Source of the DNA: Candidatus Peregrinibacteria bacterium
GTDB taxonomy: Bacteria; Patescibacteriota; Gracilibacteria; UM-FILTER-43-11
Assembly (NCBI GenBank): GCA_016932495.1
Contig: JAFGCR010000002.1
Coordinates: 8,519 to 72,518 of the forward strand
Length of the DNA stretch: 64,000 bases
Direction: 5' to 3'
Below are positions 2,180 to 41,562 of the stretch, piece after piece (positions within the stretch are counted from its first letter, which is position 1; the number at the start of each line of letters is the position of its first letter). The position numbers were made by a program, and so were the translations under genes. Below the pieces are notes generated by a model. The model ran no database searches and was not told where the DNA came from. It saw only the letters and a program-made list of their open reading frames with translations.

Positions 2180-2246
2180 ACTCAGCGACCGGGGATCAGT
2201 GACCAGCCCTGACCACTAACTACTTAAATTCTTTAATTCATCTACG

Positions 2247-5200
2247 ATGAAAAAAACAATCCCCATTTTATTATTTACCGGCTTCCTCCTCATCTTTCCG
2301 AAAATGGCTTTCGCGGGCCTCAGTGAAGGCTGTTTCCCGGCCGTGGTCTGCGGAACGGGCCAGAACTATTACGCGGATGACTGCAAGCCCCATATCGAAA
2401 CCCTTACCGGCGCCACCCAGAGCTGCCAGTCCAATTACGACGATCCTCCTGCCGGCAAGCAGTGGGCTTTTAACTGCGATAACGGCTGTTACGGGCGTTC
2501 GGATGACGTCGCGGCCGAATGCCCCGGCGGGATTATGATCGCCGGCGACTGTAAAACACTGGCCCGTGTGGTGATTGACGGACTGGATAACAATATATTA
2601 AAAACGTACGCTCTTAACACCCTCACTAAACTGGTTTACGCGGATTGCGGCGACGGCGAATCCCCCATATGGGACAATACCGCCCATGAATGGGTCTGTG
2701 TTATTCCTGCCGCCATGGACCCCTTGGCCCCTTGTGCTGACGGCGAAGTCCTTTCGTGGGATGCCGGCAATAGTGAATGGGTATGCGGACCGCCTAATTT
2801 TACGTATTGGTCTGCCAATCCTGCCGATCCTACTGAAATCTATTACAATGCGGATAATGTCGGTATCGGAACCACTGATCCGGCCGCGAAGCTGGATGTT
2901 AATGGTTCTATGAGGGCAGGATATGGACTGGACAGGACTTCTTATTTTGGACACGCGGCAATTGGATATGCAACTTATAATGGTTATGCCACTTTTGCGC
3001 ATAAGGATCACAATACAGATGCTGATGCCGCATTAGTCCAGACGCCTGGTGGTGAAACTTATCTTAATACCTCTTCTGGTGACCAAATATCATTTACCAT
3101 AGGCGGCACTACAGGTACTTTAGCTATGAGAATCAATAGTAGTGGCAATGTGGGAATGGGCACAACTGATCCCGACTATAAACTTCATGTTGAAAATTCA
3201 ACTATCTACGATTCTGTGGATCCTGACCGTTTTTATGCCGTCGCTGATTCCAGGGAATATTATGGCTTATATGCTGAAGCCAAAGGGGCATCGGGCAATC
3301 TTGGCGCTCCTCCACTTTATTATAATTTTGGTATAAAAGGGATTGCGAATGAATCTAATTCCCATGGGAATTTTGGTGTCTGGGGGGAAGCTGCCAATGG
3401 CGCAATGTTCGGAGCAGGTGTTTATGGAAAGGGTGTAGCTGATTATATGTATGGTGTTATAGGTGAAAGTGAAATGGCCACTGGTGTATATGGCGAAGGT
3501 GCGGACAAGGGAGTCCGTGGTGTTGGTGATAATTACGGTGTTTATGGTCACAGTACTTCAGGTAAAGGGGTCTATGGCGGTAGTTCTTCCGGTTATGGGG
3601 GATATTTTTCCGGTGATGTGTATGTGTCAGATAACCTGGAGGTCAGCGATGATCTTATGCTGAGCGAATATGCCAGACATAGTAACGACGATGATACCTA
3701 TCTCCAGTTTGACACCAACACATTAAACTTTGTCGGAGGGGGGAAGGAATTATTCCGGGCGCGTGGCACCGCGCAGGCCTATGCTTATTTAGGAAATAGT
3801 TCCGATGATATAGATATCGCTTTAAATGATGATTTGTTCGTACGCGGTAGTGATGGCAATGTGGGAATCGGGACACTAGCGCCTGATAATAAATTGCATG
3901 TAGAAGGGGGTTATATCGAAAATTCAGCCAGTGCACCGCGGTTGATTTTTGAGGAAACAGATCAATCTGATAATTTATGGATTATGGGTCAGGACGCTAC
4001 AGAATTTTGGATTGCTCATGACAGCACTGCTAATGAAAATCGTGTTATTCAAATTGAAGAAACCGGTGAAGTGGGCATTGGCACGGCGGATCCTAGTGCC
4101 AAGCTTGATATCGCTGTTACAGGTGATGGTACGGAAGTGCTGAGGTTCAGCACCGAAAGGCCATGGACTTTCCGCCAGCGTGGCACGGGTTCAAGTGCCA
4201 TTCTTGACTTATGGTCCACTGTTGACGGCAAAAACTTTACAATCACATCTGCCGCAAATGATAACCAGGCCGCGCTTTTCGCTCCGCGCAACACCGCTGC
4301 CGACAGCCGGGTTTATCTGGTTCAGGATGGTGGCCGGGTTGGCATTGGAACATCAAGCCCTGGTAGTGTGTTAGAAGTATCAGGTGATACCATTTTGGAT
4401 CATTATGTTCAATTAAGGGATTATGACGATGATACGCTTACCACTCATTTAATCGCCCGTGATGATAACTGGATGTTTTTTAGCGGAGGGGTGGCAATTG
4501 GCACATGGTCCAATGGTGGGCTTGGGGCTGTCGGTACGGGCGATTTAGTAGTCGAAGGAGGCGCCAGTATTGGCACTACAACAGAGACTCATTCACTTGT
4601 GGTCGCGTCAGCCGATGAAGAAACCGTACGCCTAATGGGGCCAGACAGCTATGGCCATGGTGCCCGTTTGAATTTTGGCGATGTGGATTATGTTTATTTC
4701 GATGAATATGAAGATGATAAGTTAAAGATATATGGTGAGGATGGTATATATATTGATACTCATTTCACCAGTGATTACCTGACCATTGATACTAATGTGG
4801 ATGCCTTGTATGATATTTATGTAGGCGATGAGTTGACAGTTGATAATGATTTGTGGGTGGATGATGACATATATCTTTATGACAAAATTTATCATAAGGG
4901 AGATGAAGATACGTATATTGATTTTAATACCGACAATATTGATTTTTATGCAGAGGGTGTGAATACCCTTGATCTAAGAGATGACATTGTTTATTGGCAG
5001 GCAGGAGGCAAAATGACAGCCTGCCCGGATGGCTATACATTAGTAGATTGGGATGGTGTAAATTACAATCCCGGTTTTTGCATAAAGGATTATGGTGATA
5101 TTTTTATTGGCTCCTGGCCTTTTGCAAATGCCGCCTGTATGGCGGAAGGGGCTCATATGTGTGATTACACTGAGCTGTGGCTGGCTTATGAGCATGGTTC

Positions 5201-37349: not shown

Positions 37350-39131
37350 CTATTCAATAGCAGGCGTTTCTACCGGTGCTGTGTCAGGGATTTCACCCAG
37401 TCGGATTTCCGGCACTTCACTTTTTGGTTTGATGCGCTGGACGACCGTGATAGATTTCGGGTCGGGAAGAATCTGGATGCCCGTTTGGTCTTTAAGGCCT
37501 TTTAAATCTATGCGGTAGGATTCCAGCGTCTGATCGGTTACACCCTCCACTTCGAGCTGGATCACGTTTGGCTGGATTAGCTCTGTGTAAATCACATTCA
37601 CCTCATCTGTGTTCTCATTATTTTTATTCAAATCGGCAATAGAAAAATTTTGGGGGTTATTGGCCGTGGCCGGATCCATGGGTTCGTTCCAGATAATGTT
37701 GATACGAGTGAGGTCTTCAAACTCCTGTTCGATTGGATAAGGCGGAGTGGTATCAGGCAGGATTTTTACGGCTAGATCTTTATCGTTTTCCAGTTTCCCC
37801 ATAAAAAGCGCCCGATTTTCACGGGTATCAAAATCATCGCTTTCCATTAATTTTCCCTCGGCGGTCTCCACAGTGAGTTTGTAAAAGGCTTCACTGCCGG
37901 ATTGTTTGATGAGTCGCAGCTGATATTGGTCATGCAGAAAGGTGTTGCGCGGCAAAGTATAAGTGTAGCTTAAACTTGTCTTGCTCCCCGCCGGCAGGAT
38001 GATCTTCGTTCCTATCATTTTAAATTCTCCCTCACCCTGTTCCTGGCTGTCTAAGGGCAGCTGAAGCACGTCCGCCCCCTTGGGAATATAAAGCCTTAAG
38101 TATCCTTTGTAATTATCGCTGTACGTATTGGTGAATCCAGGGTAGCGGATGGTCACCTCGGTCGTGATCTCCGGCAGTTCTTTCGTGATATTGGCGTAAT
38201 AATGGACTTCGGTCTGCACGTAACGGTCCGCCTTTTTACTGCCCAGATTCGCCAGGTTTACCGTCAGGAAGTCGCTTCGTTCCAATGGCGCCATGGCATT
38301 GGCCCAGCTTTTTTCAATTAATTTGTTTTCCAGCCGTTCGTTTTTAAGCCACAGATAGATATTTTTATTGTTCAGCCCGTCCACGAACAGGTCACGGGTT
38401 TTAAACGGATGGCGTTTGGCTTTACCGATTAATTGGATGGCCAGTTCCCCCAGAATATCTTTTCGGTTTTCCAGCGCATCTACATCGTGCCGGTCAATAT
38501 TGTTCACTTCGAATTCCAGTTCGCTGAACAGATTATTTTTGGTCAGCTGTTTTCCATTCAGGCTGATTCCGCCGAATTCATCGATCATCTTTTCAATCAG
38601 GCTGAAATTTACCACAATCAGCCCATCCACATCCTTATCGGGGAATTTTTCCTGGTAAAACTTGATCAGTTCTTCGGCTGCGCCCGGGAAGTCCGGATCC
38701 CAGTTGGCGTCGCGGAAGGTATATCCTTGGTACCATTCATTTTTCAGCAGTTCTTCGTGCGGATAGGGGGGCGTGACATAGCTTTTGGTGTCGATGTCGT
38801 ATGAATTTTTAAAGGTCACATCGCCCGGGAAACCCATGAATGTACTTATTTCTCCGTACCCCGTGATAAACCCGCCCCCTGGCCGTAATTCATAATCATT
38901 CTGCAGAATGACCACATAATCTTTGCTGAAAAAGGTAAGGCCTAAGAAATGGTTGGCGAAAAAACGCAGTTCCCCCAGCATCAGGTAAAAGATAAAGAAG
39001 GTCAGAACGATGATGCCCACAATGATCCCGGCCCACTTTTTAACGCCTTTGGGCAGTTTGATCTTTAAAGAGCGTCCGCCCTTTTTCTTCTCCTGTTTTT
39101 GCTGACTGTAAGGTGAATAGGCGTATTCCAT
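37350..39131 (-). CDS. DUF4012-like membrane-anchored protein with a C-terminal Ig-like region
   Basis: N-terminal TM helix. VVILQNDYELRPGGGFITGYGEI matches the NNAELRxTGGFIGSYG hallmark as I remember it. Confidence 0.7.
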   Translation of the reverse strand: MEYAYSPYSQQKQEKKKGGRSLKIKLPKGVKKWAGIIVGIIVLTFFIFYLMLGELRFFANHFLGLTFFSKDYVVILQNDYELRPGGGFITGYGEISTFMGFPGDVTFKNSYDIDTKSYVTPPYPHEELLKNEWYQGYTFRDANWDPDFPGAAEELIKFYQEKFPDKDVDGLIVVNFSLIEKMIDEFGGISLNGKQLTKNNLFSELEFEVNNIDRHDVDALENRKDILGELAIQLIGKAKRHPFKTRDLFVDGLNNKNIYLWLKNERLENKLIEKSWANAMAPLERSDFLTVNLANLGSKKADRYVQTEVHYYANITKELPEITTEVTIRYPGFTNTYSDNYKGYLRLYIPKGADVLQLPLDSQEQGEGEFKMIGTKIILPAGSKTSLSYTYTLPRNTFLHDQYQLRLIKQSGSEAFYKLTVETAEGKLMESDDFDTRENRALFMGKLENDKDLAVKILPDTTPPYPIEQEFEDLTRINIIWNEPMDPATANNPQNFSIADLNKNNENTDEVNVIYTELIQPNVIQLEVEGVTDQTLESYRIDLKGLKDQTGIQILPDPKSITVVQRIKPKSEVPEIRLGEIPDTAPVETPAIE

Positions 39132-39197
39132 AAAATGGGTTAGTTCGAATGGATTATAACTTAAAAATACGGAAAGCTGAAATTATAAAGTTAATAA

Positions 39198-39225
39198 TTG
39201 ACAATTATTTTTTTATTAATAAAAT
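39198..39225 (+). promoter_or_regulatory. Sigma70-type promoter driving the tRNA-like gene cluster
   Basis: TTGACA (39198-39203), 16-nt spacer, TAAAAT (39220-39225). Confidence 0.7.
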
Positions 39226-39314
39226 GAGTATCTGATTCAGCGTAGGATGCGTTCTTTTAAGGAGCGTTCCTATACTGTTTCAGTAGGTTCCGAGTGCTCG
39301 GAATCGCTACTTAT

Positions 39315-39455
39315 GGGGTGGTAGCTCAGTCGGGAGAGCAGTTTACAGCGATTAAGGATCTGACAACAGAATCCTGATCAACATCAGAGGCCTCGGTTTT
39401 GTTTTCAGGTCTCGCTGTAAGCAGGTCGGGGGTTCAATACCCTCCCACTCCACCA
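39315..39455 (+). tRNA. tRNA-Ala-type gene (G3:U70, encoded CCA) carrying a 65-nt rod-like insertion in the anticodon arm
   Basis: Acceptor GGGGTGG/CCACTCC with G3-T70. D arm GCTC-AGTCGGGA-GAGC. T arm GGGGG-TTCAATA-CCCTC. Anticodon stem GTTTA/TAAGC encloses 72 nt instead of 7. See findings. Confidence 0.6.
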
Positions 39456-39524
39456 TTCAACAAAGCCCCTTGGGCGGAATGCCTAGGGGTTGCAGAAAGG
39501 CCGGACGTCAAGTCCGTTCTCATA

Positions 39525-39611
39525 GCCGGGTTCGTCTAGCATCCAGGACGCCGATGAACGGGTAAAATCGTTCAGTCGGAAACGTGGGTGAAGATCCCAC
39601 ACCCGGCACCA
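39525..39611 (+). tRNA. tRNA-Glu-like gene with a doubled (10-bp) anticodon stem, an 8-nt loop and non-canonical D and T loops
   Basis: Acceptor GCCGGGT/ACCCGGC plus ACCA. D arm GTC-TAGCATCCAG-GAC. T arm GTGGG-TGAAGAT-CCCAC. Anticodon arm CCGATGAACG-GGTAAAAT-CGTTC(A)GTCGG. Confidence 0.55.
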
Positions 39612-39613
39612 AT

Positions 39614-39686
39614 TGCCTGGTAGCTCAATTGGCAGAGCGGGGGATTCGCAATCTCCAGGTCGCTGGTTCAAGTCCAGCCCAGGCCA
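39614..39686 (+). tRNA. Cloverleaf tRNA with anticodon CGC but no G3:U70 pair
   Basis: D arm GCTC-AATTGGCA-GAGC. Anticodon arm GGGGA-TTCGCAA-TCTCC. T arm GCTGG-TTCAAGT-CCAGC. Acceptor TGCCTGG/CCAGGCC has a U1-C72 mismatch and C3:G70. CCA is not encoded. Confidence 0.65.
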
Positions 39687-39732
39687 CACACGATCGGGTT
39701 AGCTAATTGCGGCAAAACCCGTCACGATACAA

Positions 39733-39770
39733 GGCGGCTCGTTACCTATCGAGCCGCCCTTTCTCTATTT
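39733..39770 (+). terminator. Rho-independent terminator after the tRNA-like cluster
   Basis: ggcggctcg-ttacctat-cgagccgcc followed by ctttctctattt. Confidence 0.7.
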
Positions 39771-39825
39771 GCATCCATTTGCCTGGCACGGTAAACTGAT
39801 GGCGGTTGATTTAACAAAAAATAAA

Positions 39826-40599
39826 ATGAAAAAATGCATTTGTAATCCATTATTTGATTTAACCGGTAAGGTTGCCATTGTCACGGGTGCCAGCCGGGGT
39901 CTTGGGCTTGCTATGGCCCTTGGGCTTGCTCAGCAGGGAGCGAATATAGTGATTACCGATGTTCTTTCTACCGCAAAAGTAATCAAGAAGGTGGAAGCGT
40001 TGGGTGTTAAGGCATTAGGCCTGAAAGTCGATGTGACCAATCCAAAGCACATTGATGCTATGGTCAAAAAAGTCGTGGGCAAATTTAAGAAAATCGATAT
40101 TCTTATCAATAATGCCGGTGTTTATTACCCCACGCCTATTAAAGATCTGGAAGAAAAGGAATGGGATAAGCTGATCGCCATTAACTTAAAAGGCACCCTG
40201 ATGTGCGCGCGAACTGTTGGCAAACAAATGATTAAGCAGAAGAAAGGAAGTATTGTTAACATAGCCAGTGTGGCTGGCCTGATGGCCTTTGCACAGTCAG
40301 CCGCTTATAACGTTAGTAAGGCGGGAATCATTATGCTCACCAAAACGCTGGCAGCGGAATGGGCGCCGCACGGAATCCGCGTGAACGCGATCTGTCCGGG
40401 CGTTTTTGTTACCGATATGACCAAAGGACTGCTGAAAGATAAAGGTTTCCAGAACATGATCAAAGCCAGCGTCCCCCTGCAGCGTTCCGGCACACCGGAT
40501 GAATTGGCGGGTGCCGCGGTTTATTTGGCCTCTGATGCCGCCAGTTATACCACTGGCCACGCGCTGGTGGTGGATGGCGGATGGACAACACATTTATAG
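39826..40599 (+). CDS. Short-chain dehydrogenase/reductase (FabG / gluconate-5-dehydrogenase-like)
   Basis: VAIVTGASRGLG (TGxxxGxG), NNAG, and the S...YxxxK catalytic set (YNVSKAG). The start is uncertain (39799 or 39826). The listed 39769 lies inside the terminator. Confidence 0.88.
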   Translation: MKKCICNPLFDLTGKVAIVTGASRGLGLAMALGLAQQGANIVITDVLSTAKVIKKVEALGVKALGLKVDVTNPKHIDAMVKKVVGKFKKIDILINNAGVYYPTPIKDLEEKEWDKLIAINLKGTLMCARTVGKQMIKQKKGSIVNIASVAGLMAFAQSAAYNVSKAGIIMLTKTLAAEWAPHGIRVNAICPGVFVTDMTKGLLKDKGFQNMIKASVPLQRSGTPDELAGAAVYLASDAASYTTGHALVVDGGWTTHL

Positions 40600-40623
40600 T
40601 TTACCTTTTAATCGATATTAAAA

Positions 40624-41562
40624 ATGAAGAAAATGACTAATCCAAAAGTCCGTAAAACCCGTATCGCGGTGGTCGGCATCGGTATGGTGGGCTCCTCTTT
40701 CGCGTACGCGGCCATGATCAAGGGGCTGGCGGCAGAGCTCATATTAATTGATGTTAGCGAAGAGCGTGAGGAGGGGGAAGTGATGGATCTGGCTCATGGG
40801 CTGATCGGCACGGAGACCGGTGATGTGCGGGGTGGTCATTTAAGGGATTGTGGCGATGTGGATATTATCGTCATTACCGCGGGGGTGGCCCAGAAACCGG
40901 GTGAAACACGCCTTGATTTAATCAAAAAGAACACCAAAATCATGAAGGGGATCATTAAAGAAATGGGAAAACTCCGTTCCGATACGGTGGTGATCATTGT
41001 CTCTAATCCGGTTGATGTTTTAACCTATATTGCTCAGCAGTATATCAAGCTCCCTAAAGGTCAGATATTCGGTTCCGGCACGTCGCTCGACACATCCCGC
41101 CTGCGTTACATCATCAGTCAGAAACTGGGGGTTAATCTGCACAATGTGCATGGATATGTGATGGGGGAGCACGGGGATAGTGAATTTGTACCCTGGAGCA
41201 TTGCCAATGTATCCGGTCTGCCGATTAAAAAAATGCTGACTGCTAAAGATATGCATGCTATTGAAAAGCAGACGATGCGTGCGGCGTATGAGATCATTCA
41301 GCGGAAACGCGCCACGTATTACGGAATCGGTGTGGTGATCACGGAATTGGTGGAAAATGTCCTTCATGACCGCAAGTTTGTTATTCCAGTCTCTACTGAA
41401 CCGGGAACGGCTTATGGTATTAAAGGGATTTGCTTAGGTGTACCCGCCATTTTAGGCCGGCGCGGTGTGGAGCAGGTGTGGAAGCTGGATCTGACCAAAG
41501 GGGAGATGGAGAAGCTGAAAAAATCTGCCGGGATTTTGAAGAAATATTTGAAATCGATTTAA
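40624..41562 (+). CDS. ldh: L-lactate dehydrogenase
   Basis: IAVVGIGMVGSS Rossmann motif. AGVAQKPGETRLDL has Gln at the LDH/MDH discriminator position. GEHGDSEFVPWS. Confidence 0.9.
   Translation: MKKMTNPKVRKTRIAVVGIGMVGSSFAYAAMIKGLAAELILIDVSEEREEGEVMDLAHGLIGTETGDVRGGHLRDCGDVDIIVITAGVAQKPGETRLDLIKKNTKIMKGIIKEMGKLRSDTVVIIVSNPVDVLTYIAQQYIKLPKGQIFGSGTSLDTSRLRYIISQKLGVNLHNVHGYVMGEHGDSEFVPWSIANVSGLPIKKMLTAKDMHAIEKQTMRAAYEIIQRKRATYYGIGVVITELVENVLHDRKFVIPVSTEPGTAYGIKGICLGVPAILGRRGVEQVWKLDLTKGEMEKLKKSAGILKKYLKSI

Follow-up and report, generated by a model that had tools for sequence, protein, structure and literature searches.

The RNA gene and its transcription unit

We analyzed a stretch of 64,000 nt (hereafter, the window) from a contig of a Candidatus Peregrinibacteria bacterium and, in particular, a 141-nt gene within it that resembles tRNA-Ala and carries a 72-nt rod in place of the anticodon loop. 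The window represents core chromosome: a ribosomal-protein operon and genes encoding EF-Tu, IF3, L20, GluRS, MurB, DnaJ, NrdR, Mdh, DinG, and V-type ATPase were found in it. The tRNA-like gene lies in a small RNA cassette, which occupies a 638-bp gap between divergent genes. The adjacent DUF4012 protein had its closest named relatives in Candidatus Peregrinibacteria and Patescibacteria; therefore, the host is a bacterium of the candidate phyla radiation (CPR).

Every coordinate and helix that the original prediction had assigned to the gene was located in the sequence. With G39315 read as position 1, the acceptor stem consisted of seven base pairs (GGGGUGG, 39315-21, and CCACUCC, 39445-51) including G3·U70, and was followed by A73 (39452) and an encoded CCA (39453-55). 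U8 and A9 were present after the 5′ acceptor strand, A26 after the D arm (GCUC-AGUCGGGA-GAGC, 39324-39); the variable loop was AGGUC, and the T arm (GGGGG-UUCAAUA-CCCUC) occupied positions 39428-44. The anticodon stem was formed by five base pairs (GUUUA, 39341-45, and UAAGC, 39418-22), and 72 nt (39346-39417) instead of the normal 7 were found between positions 31 and 39. All the bases of the identity set of alanyl-tRNA synthetase (AlaRS) of the E. coli type—G3·U70, A73, G2-C71, G4-C69, and G20—were read directly in the sequence along with the CCA end, which bears out the alanine identity proposed for the body; the RNA is thus predicted to be, and probably is, a substrate of AlaRS. The combination expected of a decoding tRNA, a 7-nt loop with U33 and a purine at position 37, was not found in it.

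ARAGORN called no tRNA at 39315-39455. The tRNA model of Rfam (RF00005; gathering threshold of 29 bits) matched the RNA with 40.3 bits (E = 7e-7), all model positions from 1 to 71 being matched and an insertion of 71 nt being placed in the anticodon loop. The minimum free energy fold was a cloverleaf with a continuous rod, −61 kcal/mol; shuffled controls gave −39.1 ± 3.8 kcal/mol (z = −5.78), and none of the 200 was as stable. The permuted model of transfer-messenger RNA (tmRNA) scored 21.6 bits versus the 47 needed, its match being limited to the T arm and CCA; tmRNA was not called by ARAGORN either, and the D stem was present. Apart from this sub-threshold match, no ribozyme, intron, tmRNA, or Y RNA family was found by Rfam in the region 38900-39900 at E ≤ 10, and the earlier statement that no group I intron is present agrees with the lack of group I, group II, and other ribozyme families at this cutoff.

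In the predicted fold, the rod and the anticodon stem together comprised 32 bp. From base to tip, the rod consisted of 6 bp (CAGCGA/UCGCUG), the UUAAG bulge, 7 bp (GAUCUGA/UCAGGUC), a 1x1 loop, 9 bp, and a terminal hairpin (CUGAU-CAAC-AUCAG) with a 7-nt AGGCCUC bulge. Its only bulges were the 5-nt UUAAG on the 5′ strand, single nucleotides, and the 7-nt one near the tip on the 3′ strand, so that no bulge-helix-bulge (BHB) was present, as had been claimed. An 8-nt palindrome, GAGGCCUC (core AGGCCU), was observed at 39387-39394 in the tip-proximal bulge; it could permit loop–loop dimerisation or the binding of a symmetric protein. Alternative pairing of GAGGCC of the rod with GGUCUC at the rod base is also possible.

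As read from the sequence, the tRNA-like RNA belongs to a cassette that extends from promoter to terminator and holds two further aberrant tRNA-like genes (Table 1): the leader with two hairpins is followed by the tRNA-like RNA, hairpin 3, tRNA-like #2, tRNA #3, and the trailer. The leader ended with CGCUACUUAY immediately before the 5′ end of the tRNA-like RNA, and this junction is presumed to be an RNase P site. tRNA-like #2 had an acceptor stem of 7 bp (GCCGGGU/ACCCGGC) with A73 and CCA, a D-like stem of 4-5 bp without GG, a bulged anticodon arm of 11 bp with a 6-8-nt loop, a variable region of 4 nt, and a T-like arm with the loop UGAAGAU; its D and T loops were non-canonical. It gave no Rfam match and had no homologue among the fetched loci. 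tRNA #3 contained C3-G70 in place of G3·U70, a U1·C72 mismatch, and no encoded CCA; in a BLAST against plasmids, only this gene was matched, to ordinary tRNAs. An initiator-like identity of tRNA #3 was considered and rejected because its defining motifs were not in the sequence; integron attC, box C/D or K-turn, and two-piece tmRNA were dropped for the same reason.

Table 1. Features of the cassette, with coordinates in the window; L248 is the orthologous locus described below.
Feature	Position	Strand	Evidence
Sigma-70-type promoter, TTGACA-16 nt-TAAAAT	39198..39225	+	11/12 consensus matches; block near-identical in L248
Leader with two hairpins (~39244-39271, 39282-39311)	39232..39314	+	Sequence reading; L248 alignment
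tRNA-Ala-like RNA, 141 nt	39315..39455	+	Rfam tRNA score; minimum free energy cloverleaf and rod; L248 orthologue
72-nt rod replacing the 7-nt anticodon loop	39346..39417	+	67/72 identity to L248; fold
Hairpin 3 (CCCCUUGGGC...GCCUAGGGG) and UUGCA, directly 3′ of the tRNA-like RNA	39465..39494	+	Predicted fold; L248
Extra block missing from L248 (193 nt: small hairpin, tRNA-like #2, tRNA #3)	39495..39687	+	Gap in the alignment of the window with L248
tRNA-like #2, cloverleaf-shaped, ending ACCA	39525-39611	+	Predicted fold
tRNA #3, anticodon CGC	39614-39687	+	ARAGORN and Rfam (58 bits), both assigning Ala(CGC)
Trailer (CACACGAUCGG-hairpin-CCGUCAC) and intrinsic terminator (stem 39733-39758, U tract)	39688..39768	+	Terminator scan

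Conservation of the cassette and its distribution among relatives

The locus was compared by synteny, via DUF4012 homologues, in nine other populations. An orthologous cassette was found in one of these nine loci, L248 (GCA_004196315.1), which belongs to a second species and where the neighboring protein was 85% identical. It consisted of the promoter, the last 10 nt of the leader, the tRNA-like RNA (2513-2653, minus strand; 42.1 bits with the Rfam tRNA model), hairpin 3, and the trailer with the terminator, and was devoid of the block containing #2 and #3. The promoter block was conserved although its flanking sequence was not. In the leader, the start (CUGAUUCAG) and the final 10 nt were conserved, whereas the hairpin interior was variable, with a 90-nt expansion in L248. 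The inner stem of hairpin 3 was changed in L248, yet it still paired (GGGC-GAA-GCUC).

Synonymous sites of the adjacent DUF4012 gene were saturated between the window and L248, with 38% identity at fourfold-type sites and 51% at third codon positions. Despite this saturation, the tRNA-like RNA was identical at 126 of 141 positions (89%); thus, the element is not a product of chance. In the rod, 67 of 72 positions (93%) were identical, all five changes fell in pairs and kept the pairing, and no substitution occurred among the ~18 unpaired nucleotides (UUAAG, 39352-56; the CAAC loop, 39379-82; the AGGCCUC bulge, 39388-94; and two single nucleotides). The anticodon stem was less conserved than the rod (6/10 identical). 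Seven pairs of the anticodon arm differed: one by a double compensatory change (A-U to G-C), five by single changes that still pair (via G·U), and one, 27:43 at the base of the anticodon stem, was lost. The acceptor stem contained another compensatory change, from G6-C67 in the window to A6-U67 in L248, and the whole AlaRS identity set (G3·U70, A73, G2-C71, G4-C69, and G20) was kept together with the CCA end.

Taken together, the identity of the rod, its pair-keeping changes, and its invariant unpaired nucleotides indicate constraint on its shape as well as its sequence, tighter than that on the anticodon stem. The L248 sequence can form an alternative fold (−38 kcal/mol); the window sequence reached −23.3 kcal/mol in a fold of this type versus −33.9 kcal/mol in the rod fold, and the rod was therefore taken as the shared conserved structure. 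Judging from these substitutions, purifying selection acts on both the rod and the tRNA body. The tRNA-like RNA is a real and conserved element that no curated family accounts for; standard tRNA finders overlook it, and Rfam has no family for it.

No cassette was found at the DUF4012 locus of L121, L122, L124, L247, L375, and L379. Locus L377 retained only a trailer-like remnant without the tRNA-like part, its trailer motif being partly shared with the window and L248, and the gene arrangement at L126 was different. In the identity matrix of DUF4012 proteins, the window grouped with L247 and L121, while L248 grouped with L375. The cassette is thus present in two non-sister lineages and absent from the sisters of both; therefore, it is accessory and was lost repeatedly or moved. 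An uninterrupted tRNA-Ala at this site in relatives, which the original prediction had named as a finding that would speak against it, was looked for; the relatives showed an empty site instead.

The slot between the DUF4012 gene and mdh (39131-40624 in the window) was hypervariable among close Peregrinibacteria (L121, L122, L126, L247, L248, L375, L377, and L379), which suggests an insertion hot spot. It was occupied by an SDR gene, an open reading frame (ORF) of 224 aa, an ORF of 92-97 aa, three unknown ORFs, or an amino-acid kinase gene. A long imperfect inverted repeat with units of the CTCAAAG/CTTTGAG type (aaactcaaagttcgaaactcaaaactcaaag ... tttgagttttggactttggactttgagtttt) was observed in L248 just upstream of the promoter (2880-2990, minus strand) and was absent from the window. 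In L126, a more distant Peregrinibacterium, mdh and the amino-acid kinase gene were separated by a GC-rich intergenic region of 650 bp (2240-2890, minus strand); no ORF, tRNA, or Rfam match was found in this region, which may hold another structured RNA.

The gene might represent a decaying tRNA-Ala pseudogene hit by a palindromic or mobile insertion similar to miniature inverted-repeat transposable elements, with the cassette being what remains, without function, of a mobile array of tRNA genes. Its patchy occurrence at a hypervariable locus, where each relative has different genes between DUF4012 and mdh, the two further aberrant tRNA-like genes in the same cassette, and the 8-nt palindrome within the rod are compatible with such an origin. 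We consider it very unlikely, however: the high identity of the rod and of the whole RNA against saturated neutral sites, the exclusively pair-preserving changes in the rod, the compensatory change in the acceptor stem, and the conservation of a strong promoter in L248 all argue against decay. Repeated elements of this kind are recognized by dispersed copies with target-site duplication. Copies of the rod elsewhere, another finding that had been named as adverse, were looked for, and no second copy was present in the 64-kb window; a BLAST of the rod against GenBank phages gave no match, a search of IMG/VR with a 21-mer of the rod gave zero matches, and a 15-mer gave only chance matches in coding DNA. 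Moreover, the rod is imperfect as a palindrome, and its asymmetric bulges are conserved.

Related elements in other contigs

A metagenome scan was made for Ala-type tRNA bodies in which the D arm and the variable loop were 45-90 nt apart, and several bacterial-type relatives were left once archaeal introns and tandem or duplicated genes had been removed. In a scan of genome contigs with a gap of 51-111 nt, all 120 loci were tandem tRNA genes, which a gap of ≤90 nt avoids. Since the pattern of the metagenome scan required U70 and CCA, the alanine identity of the additional members was imposed by the search; this does not apply to L248. An Ala-type element of exactly 141 nt with its own promoter (TTGACA-17-TAGAAT) was found at locus L313. 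Its ValRS neighbor was closest to proteins of Nealsonbacteria and Patescibacteria (Parcubacteria-like). The rods of the window and L313 had no significant sequence similarity, removal of the L313 insert would restore the loop CUUGCGG, and no tRNA was found at the corresponding site in two relatives identified via their ValRS neighbors. At L251, an Ala-type rod element was located between the 23S rRNA gene and tRNA-Ile/5S; by reading of the sequence, no excision restoring a usable anticodon loop was found for it. On the evidence of these sequences, Ala-type tRNA bodies with unrelated rods recur in Parcubacteria-like CPR contigs.

Three further contigs contained a rod-bearing Ala-type tRNA-like RNA inside the 23S rRNA gene (L290, 2694-2817; L311, 3205-3328; L312, 293-416). 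The organism belongs to the CPR, with Kaiserbacteria-like AspA matches. The position of the element corresponds to the helix-45 intervening sequence of 23S rRNA (E. coli 1144-1186), where it was enclosed by a closing stem of ~21 bp. All four differences between the rods of L290 and L311 preserved the pairing, and no excision giving an alanine anticodon loop was found in these three sequences by reading. Because of the location of the L290 element, decoding is not its obvious role. Processing of the tRNA type would set the tRNA-like RNA free and break the 23S rRNA into fragments; the element thus suggests that tRNA-type processing can fragment rRNA in the CPR.

This arrangement bears on whether the three tRNA-like bodies of the cassette (#1, the 141-nt RNA, together with #2 and #3) could be scaffolds only. 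They would then act as RNase P/RNase Z punctuation and stabilise the co-transcribed leader, spacer, and trailer RNAs or the apical rod, the alanine identity being a leftover of descent from tRNA-Ala. The fragmentation that tRNA processing would cause at L290, the single unit from promoter to terminator in which the tRNA-like RNA is flanked by conserved hairpins on either side, and the persistence of the trailer motif in L377 without the tRNA-like part are in line with such a role. At the same time, G3·U70, A73, and G20 were kept across neutral-saturating divergence (a weak argument, resting on few sites), the leader interiors were poorly conserved relative to the tRNA-like RNA, and punctuation leaves the invariant loops of the rod unexplained unless the rod tip is the product. 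For these reasons, we regard a purely structural role as unlikely.

Inserts of another type were observed in two contigs. In L306 (3107-3209), a tRNA-Ala(UGC) gene beside tRNA-Leu contained a 27-nt hairpin insert continuing the anticodon stem, and its removal gives the loop CUUGCAA; a phage tRNA-Thr gene in L231 contained a similarly placed 27-nt hairpin, the removal of which gives UUUGUAA. In both cases, the 5′ strand carries the anticodon and the insert would be removed between positions 36 and 37; this implies cuts separated by 2 bp that leave a 3′ overhang, a geometry that can be read as that produced by RNase III. The window element is not of this type: its anticodon-like triplet is on the 3′ strand, and the cuts would be 5-7 bp apart.

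In IMG/VR, at least 120 viral contigs (L127-L246) carried tRNA genes in which the variable loop was separated from the D arm by 45-90 nt, and most of these genes had perfect acceptor stems. In many examples not originating from giant viruses, the insert was inside the 5′ strand of the anticodon stem (~28/29), and recurring motifs were ACAGCAA in the middle of the insert or GUUACUUC / GUUAUC at its 3′ end. These inserts look like uncharacterised short intron families; no Ala-type tRNA with an insert was found in the IMG/VR scan. Genuine BHB introns were detected in archaeal contigs of the metagenome scan (L270, L322, L321, and L335) and were unlike the window element.

Interpretation and comparison with known systems

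Our preferred interpretation, which we hold tentatively and at somewhat less than even confidence, is that the window contains a functional, non-decoding RNA gene derived from tRNA-Ala, the product of which is probably chargeable by AlaRS and uses the rod as a functional handle. The sequence data are best fitted by a body that would still ensure RNase P cleavage, stability, an elbow, and recognition by AlaRS and has given up decoding, with the rod as a selected module. We infer processing, alanylation, retention of the rod, and the existence of a partner as follows. The RNA would be transcribed from its own strong promoter, and RNase P together with 3′ trimming would free a 141-nt molecule with the encoded CCA. 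Its body would adopt the normal L shape, with G18G19 and UUC at the elbow, the G15-C48 Levitt pair, and the full AlaRS set, while the anticodon arm would run into an interrupted rod of ~32 bp kept in the mature RNA. AlaRS ignores the anticodon; therefore, the RNA should be alanylated, and alanine is among the few identities with which such a molecule stays chargeable. The rod would bar the RNA from the ribosomal decoding site and offer UUAAG, CAAC, and AGGCCUC as a handle for a partner. Its role might then lie outside ordinary translation, where it would donate alanyl groups or serve as an adaptor; alternatively, the tRNA body might serve to stabilise the RNA.

The original prediction had described the anticodon loop as replaced or interrupted. 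Conservation of the rod, its invariant loops, and the occurrence, in two other CPR lineages, of Ala-type rod elements from which no anticodon loop can be reconstituted now favor a retained rod, with interruption by an intron as a serious rival. In the latter case, the gene would encode a pre-tRNA-Ala(CGC) with an unconventional, protein-dependent intron of 65 nt (39346/7-39410/1), the rod would be conserved for splicing recognition, and the product loop would be CUCGCUG; we consider this possible but improbable.

Several observations weigh against a retained, non-decoding rod. In its 3′ strand, C32/U33-CGC directly adjoins the corresponding strand of the anticodon stem, which is what a real tRNA-Ala(CGC) interrupted at 31/32 or 32/33 would show; this arrangement is conserved in L248, and the tRNA body is canonical throughout. 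In L306 and phage L231, removal of the hairpin inserts would leave a perfect loop, and a good loop would result in L313; some hairpin-insert splicing activity may therefore exist in these communities. The tRNA introns of Lak megaphages were reported as real, although described only as “enigmatic” (PMC6784885), and excised insertions are abundant in rRNA genes of the CPR (PMC9297842). As only two members of this exact family were found, the covariation evidence is based on few events. The cassette is dispensable, being absent in sister lineages, and any function must therefore be accessory. Finally, no candidate partner gene (Fem-type transferase, RtcB, Rsr, etc.) was found in the 64-kb window; Pfam annotation of ~30 window proteins revealed no RNA ligase, splicing endonuclease, Ro60, Fem-type transferase, or AlaRS.

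Splicing nevertheless appears to be the less economical reading of the window sequence. As had been foreseen, CUCGCUG was the only loop obtainable by excision, and with the anticodon CGC, which matches the acceptor identity, it would carry U37 and a pairable C32-G38; position 37 is a purine in nearly all tRNAs. The 5′ strand would be cut at 31/32 or 32/33, and the 3′ strand 5-7 bp higher up. With such a stagger and the opposite side of the anticodon, the geometry fits neither the L306/L231 type nor the 2-nt stagger of RNase III-like cleavage. Conservation of the supposed intron exceeds that of the anticodon stem, and none of its loops varies; it contains no BHB, no splicing endonuclease or ligase was found in the 64-kb window, and no excision giving a usable loop was found in L290 and L251. 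Dispensability of the gene in sister lineages speaks against the intron as well. No paper was found in the literature on CPR tRNA introns, and neither this literature nor that on tRNA-like RNAs in 23S intervening sequences and on phage tRNA introns was found to describe the window RNA.

With a retained rod, the RNA would be, besides tmRNA, a natural bacterial tRNA that has given up decoding yet keeps its synthetase identity, which is possible only with anticodon-independent synthetases such as AlaRS; it would also point to alanine-dependent or tRNA-shape-dependent biology in the poorly understood bacteria of the CPR. A broader extension of this interpretation is speculative, and we hold it to be doubtful: CPR/Patescibacteria would possess an undescribed class of anticodon-less, AlaRS-chargeable RNAs with lineage-specific rods, expressed from separate cassettes or even from the helix-45 intervening sequence of 23S rRNA. 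Such RNAs would serve a ribosome-independent process, e.g., envelope synthesis, tagging, or defence, by delivery of alanine or recruitment of AlaRS or tRNA-binding factors. If, on the contrary, the rod is removed, a bacterial non-ribozyme pathway of tRNA splicing would be revealed; to our knowledge, no such pathway is known to exist.

Among known systems, the anticodon region is the site of insertion in archaeal and eukaryal BHB introns and in bacterial group I tRNA introns. BHB introns are recognized by a 4-bp helix between two 3-nt bulges or by an insert at position 37/38. The window element lacks this 3-nt/4-bp/3-nt motif, and its insertion point would be 31/32 or 32/33. Group I and group II introns comprise hundreds of nucleotides; the 65 nt considered here are far below the size of a group I intron and gave no ribozyme match. 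The “enigmatic” tRNA introns of phages (Lak megaphages, PMC6784885; IMG/VR) are short (27-90 nt) inserts of a non-group-I nature in bacterial-type tRNA genes, and some, as in L231 and L306, form a hairpin that continues the anticodon stem, as the window rod does. They differ in leaving a canonical loop after removal, in occurring in tRNAs for many amino acids, and in having no sequence similarity to the window rod.

A rod-like extension replacing the terminal loop of a stable RNA is also typical of rRNA intervening sequences (helix 25/45 rods cut by RNase III), whereas the host of the window rod is a tRNA body. YrlA-type Y RNAs and engineered tRNA scaffolds, in which the anticodon arm is replaced by a cargo RNA, share the fusion of a tRNA-like module with a long helix. 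Unlike the window RNA, YrlA is circularly permuted and has no CCA end; no Y RNA/YrlA match was obtained with Rfam, and no rsr gene was present in the 64-kb window.

tmRNA, which is charged by AlaRS and provides a precedent for a chargeable RNA of this kind, resembles the window RNA in its alanine identity (G3·U70, A73, and CCA), its T arm, the lack of an anticodon, and a long helix leaving the body. The window RNA is distinguished from it by a full D stem, a 5-bp anticodon stem, a closed rod, and the absence of pseudoknots and of a tag reading frame; the Rfam tmRNA models remained below their threshold. The functional analogy that we favor is with the non-proteinogenic tRNA-Gly of Staphylococcus, the donor for cell-wall synthesis, and with other substrates of tRNA-dependent transferases, the shared concept being an aminoacyl-tRNA kept off the ribosome. 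In Staphylococcus, this tRNA-Gly is reserved for non-ribosomal use, keeps a normal anticodon loop, and differs in the T stem. In contrast to tRNA-dependent transferase systems, no transferase gene was found near the window locus. The window RNA adds a new variant to the tRNA-like RNAs and is not demonstrably a category of its own.

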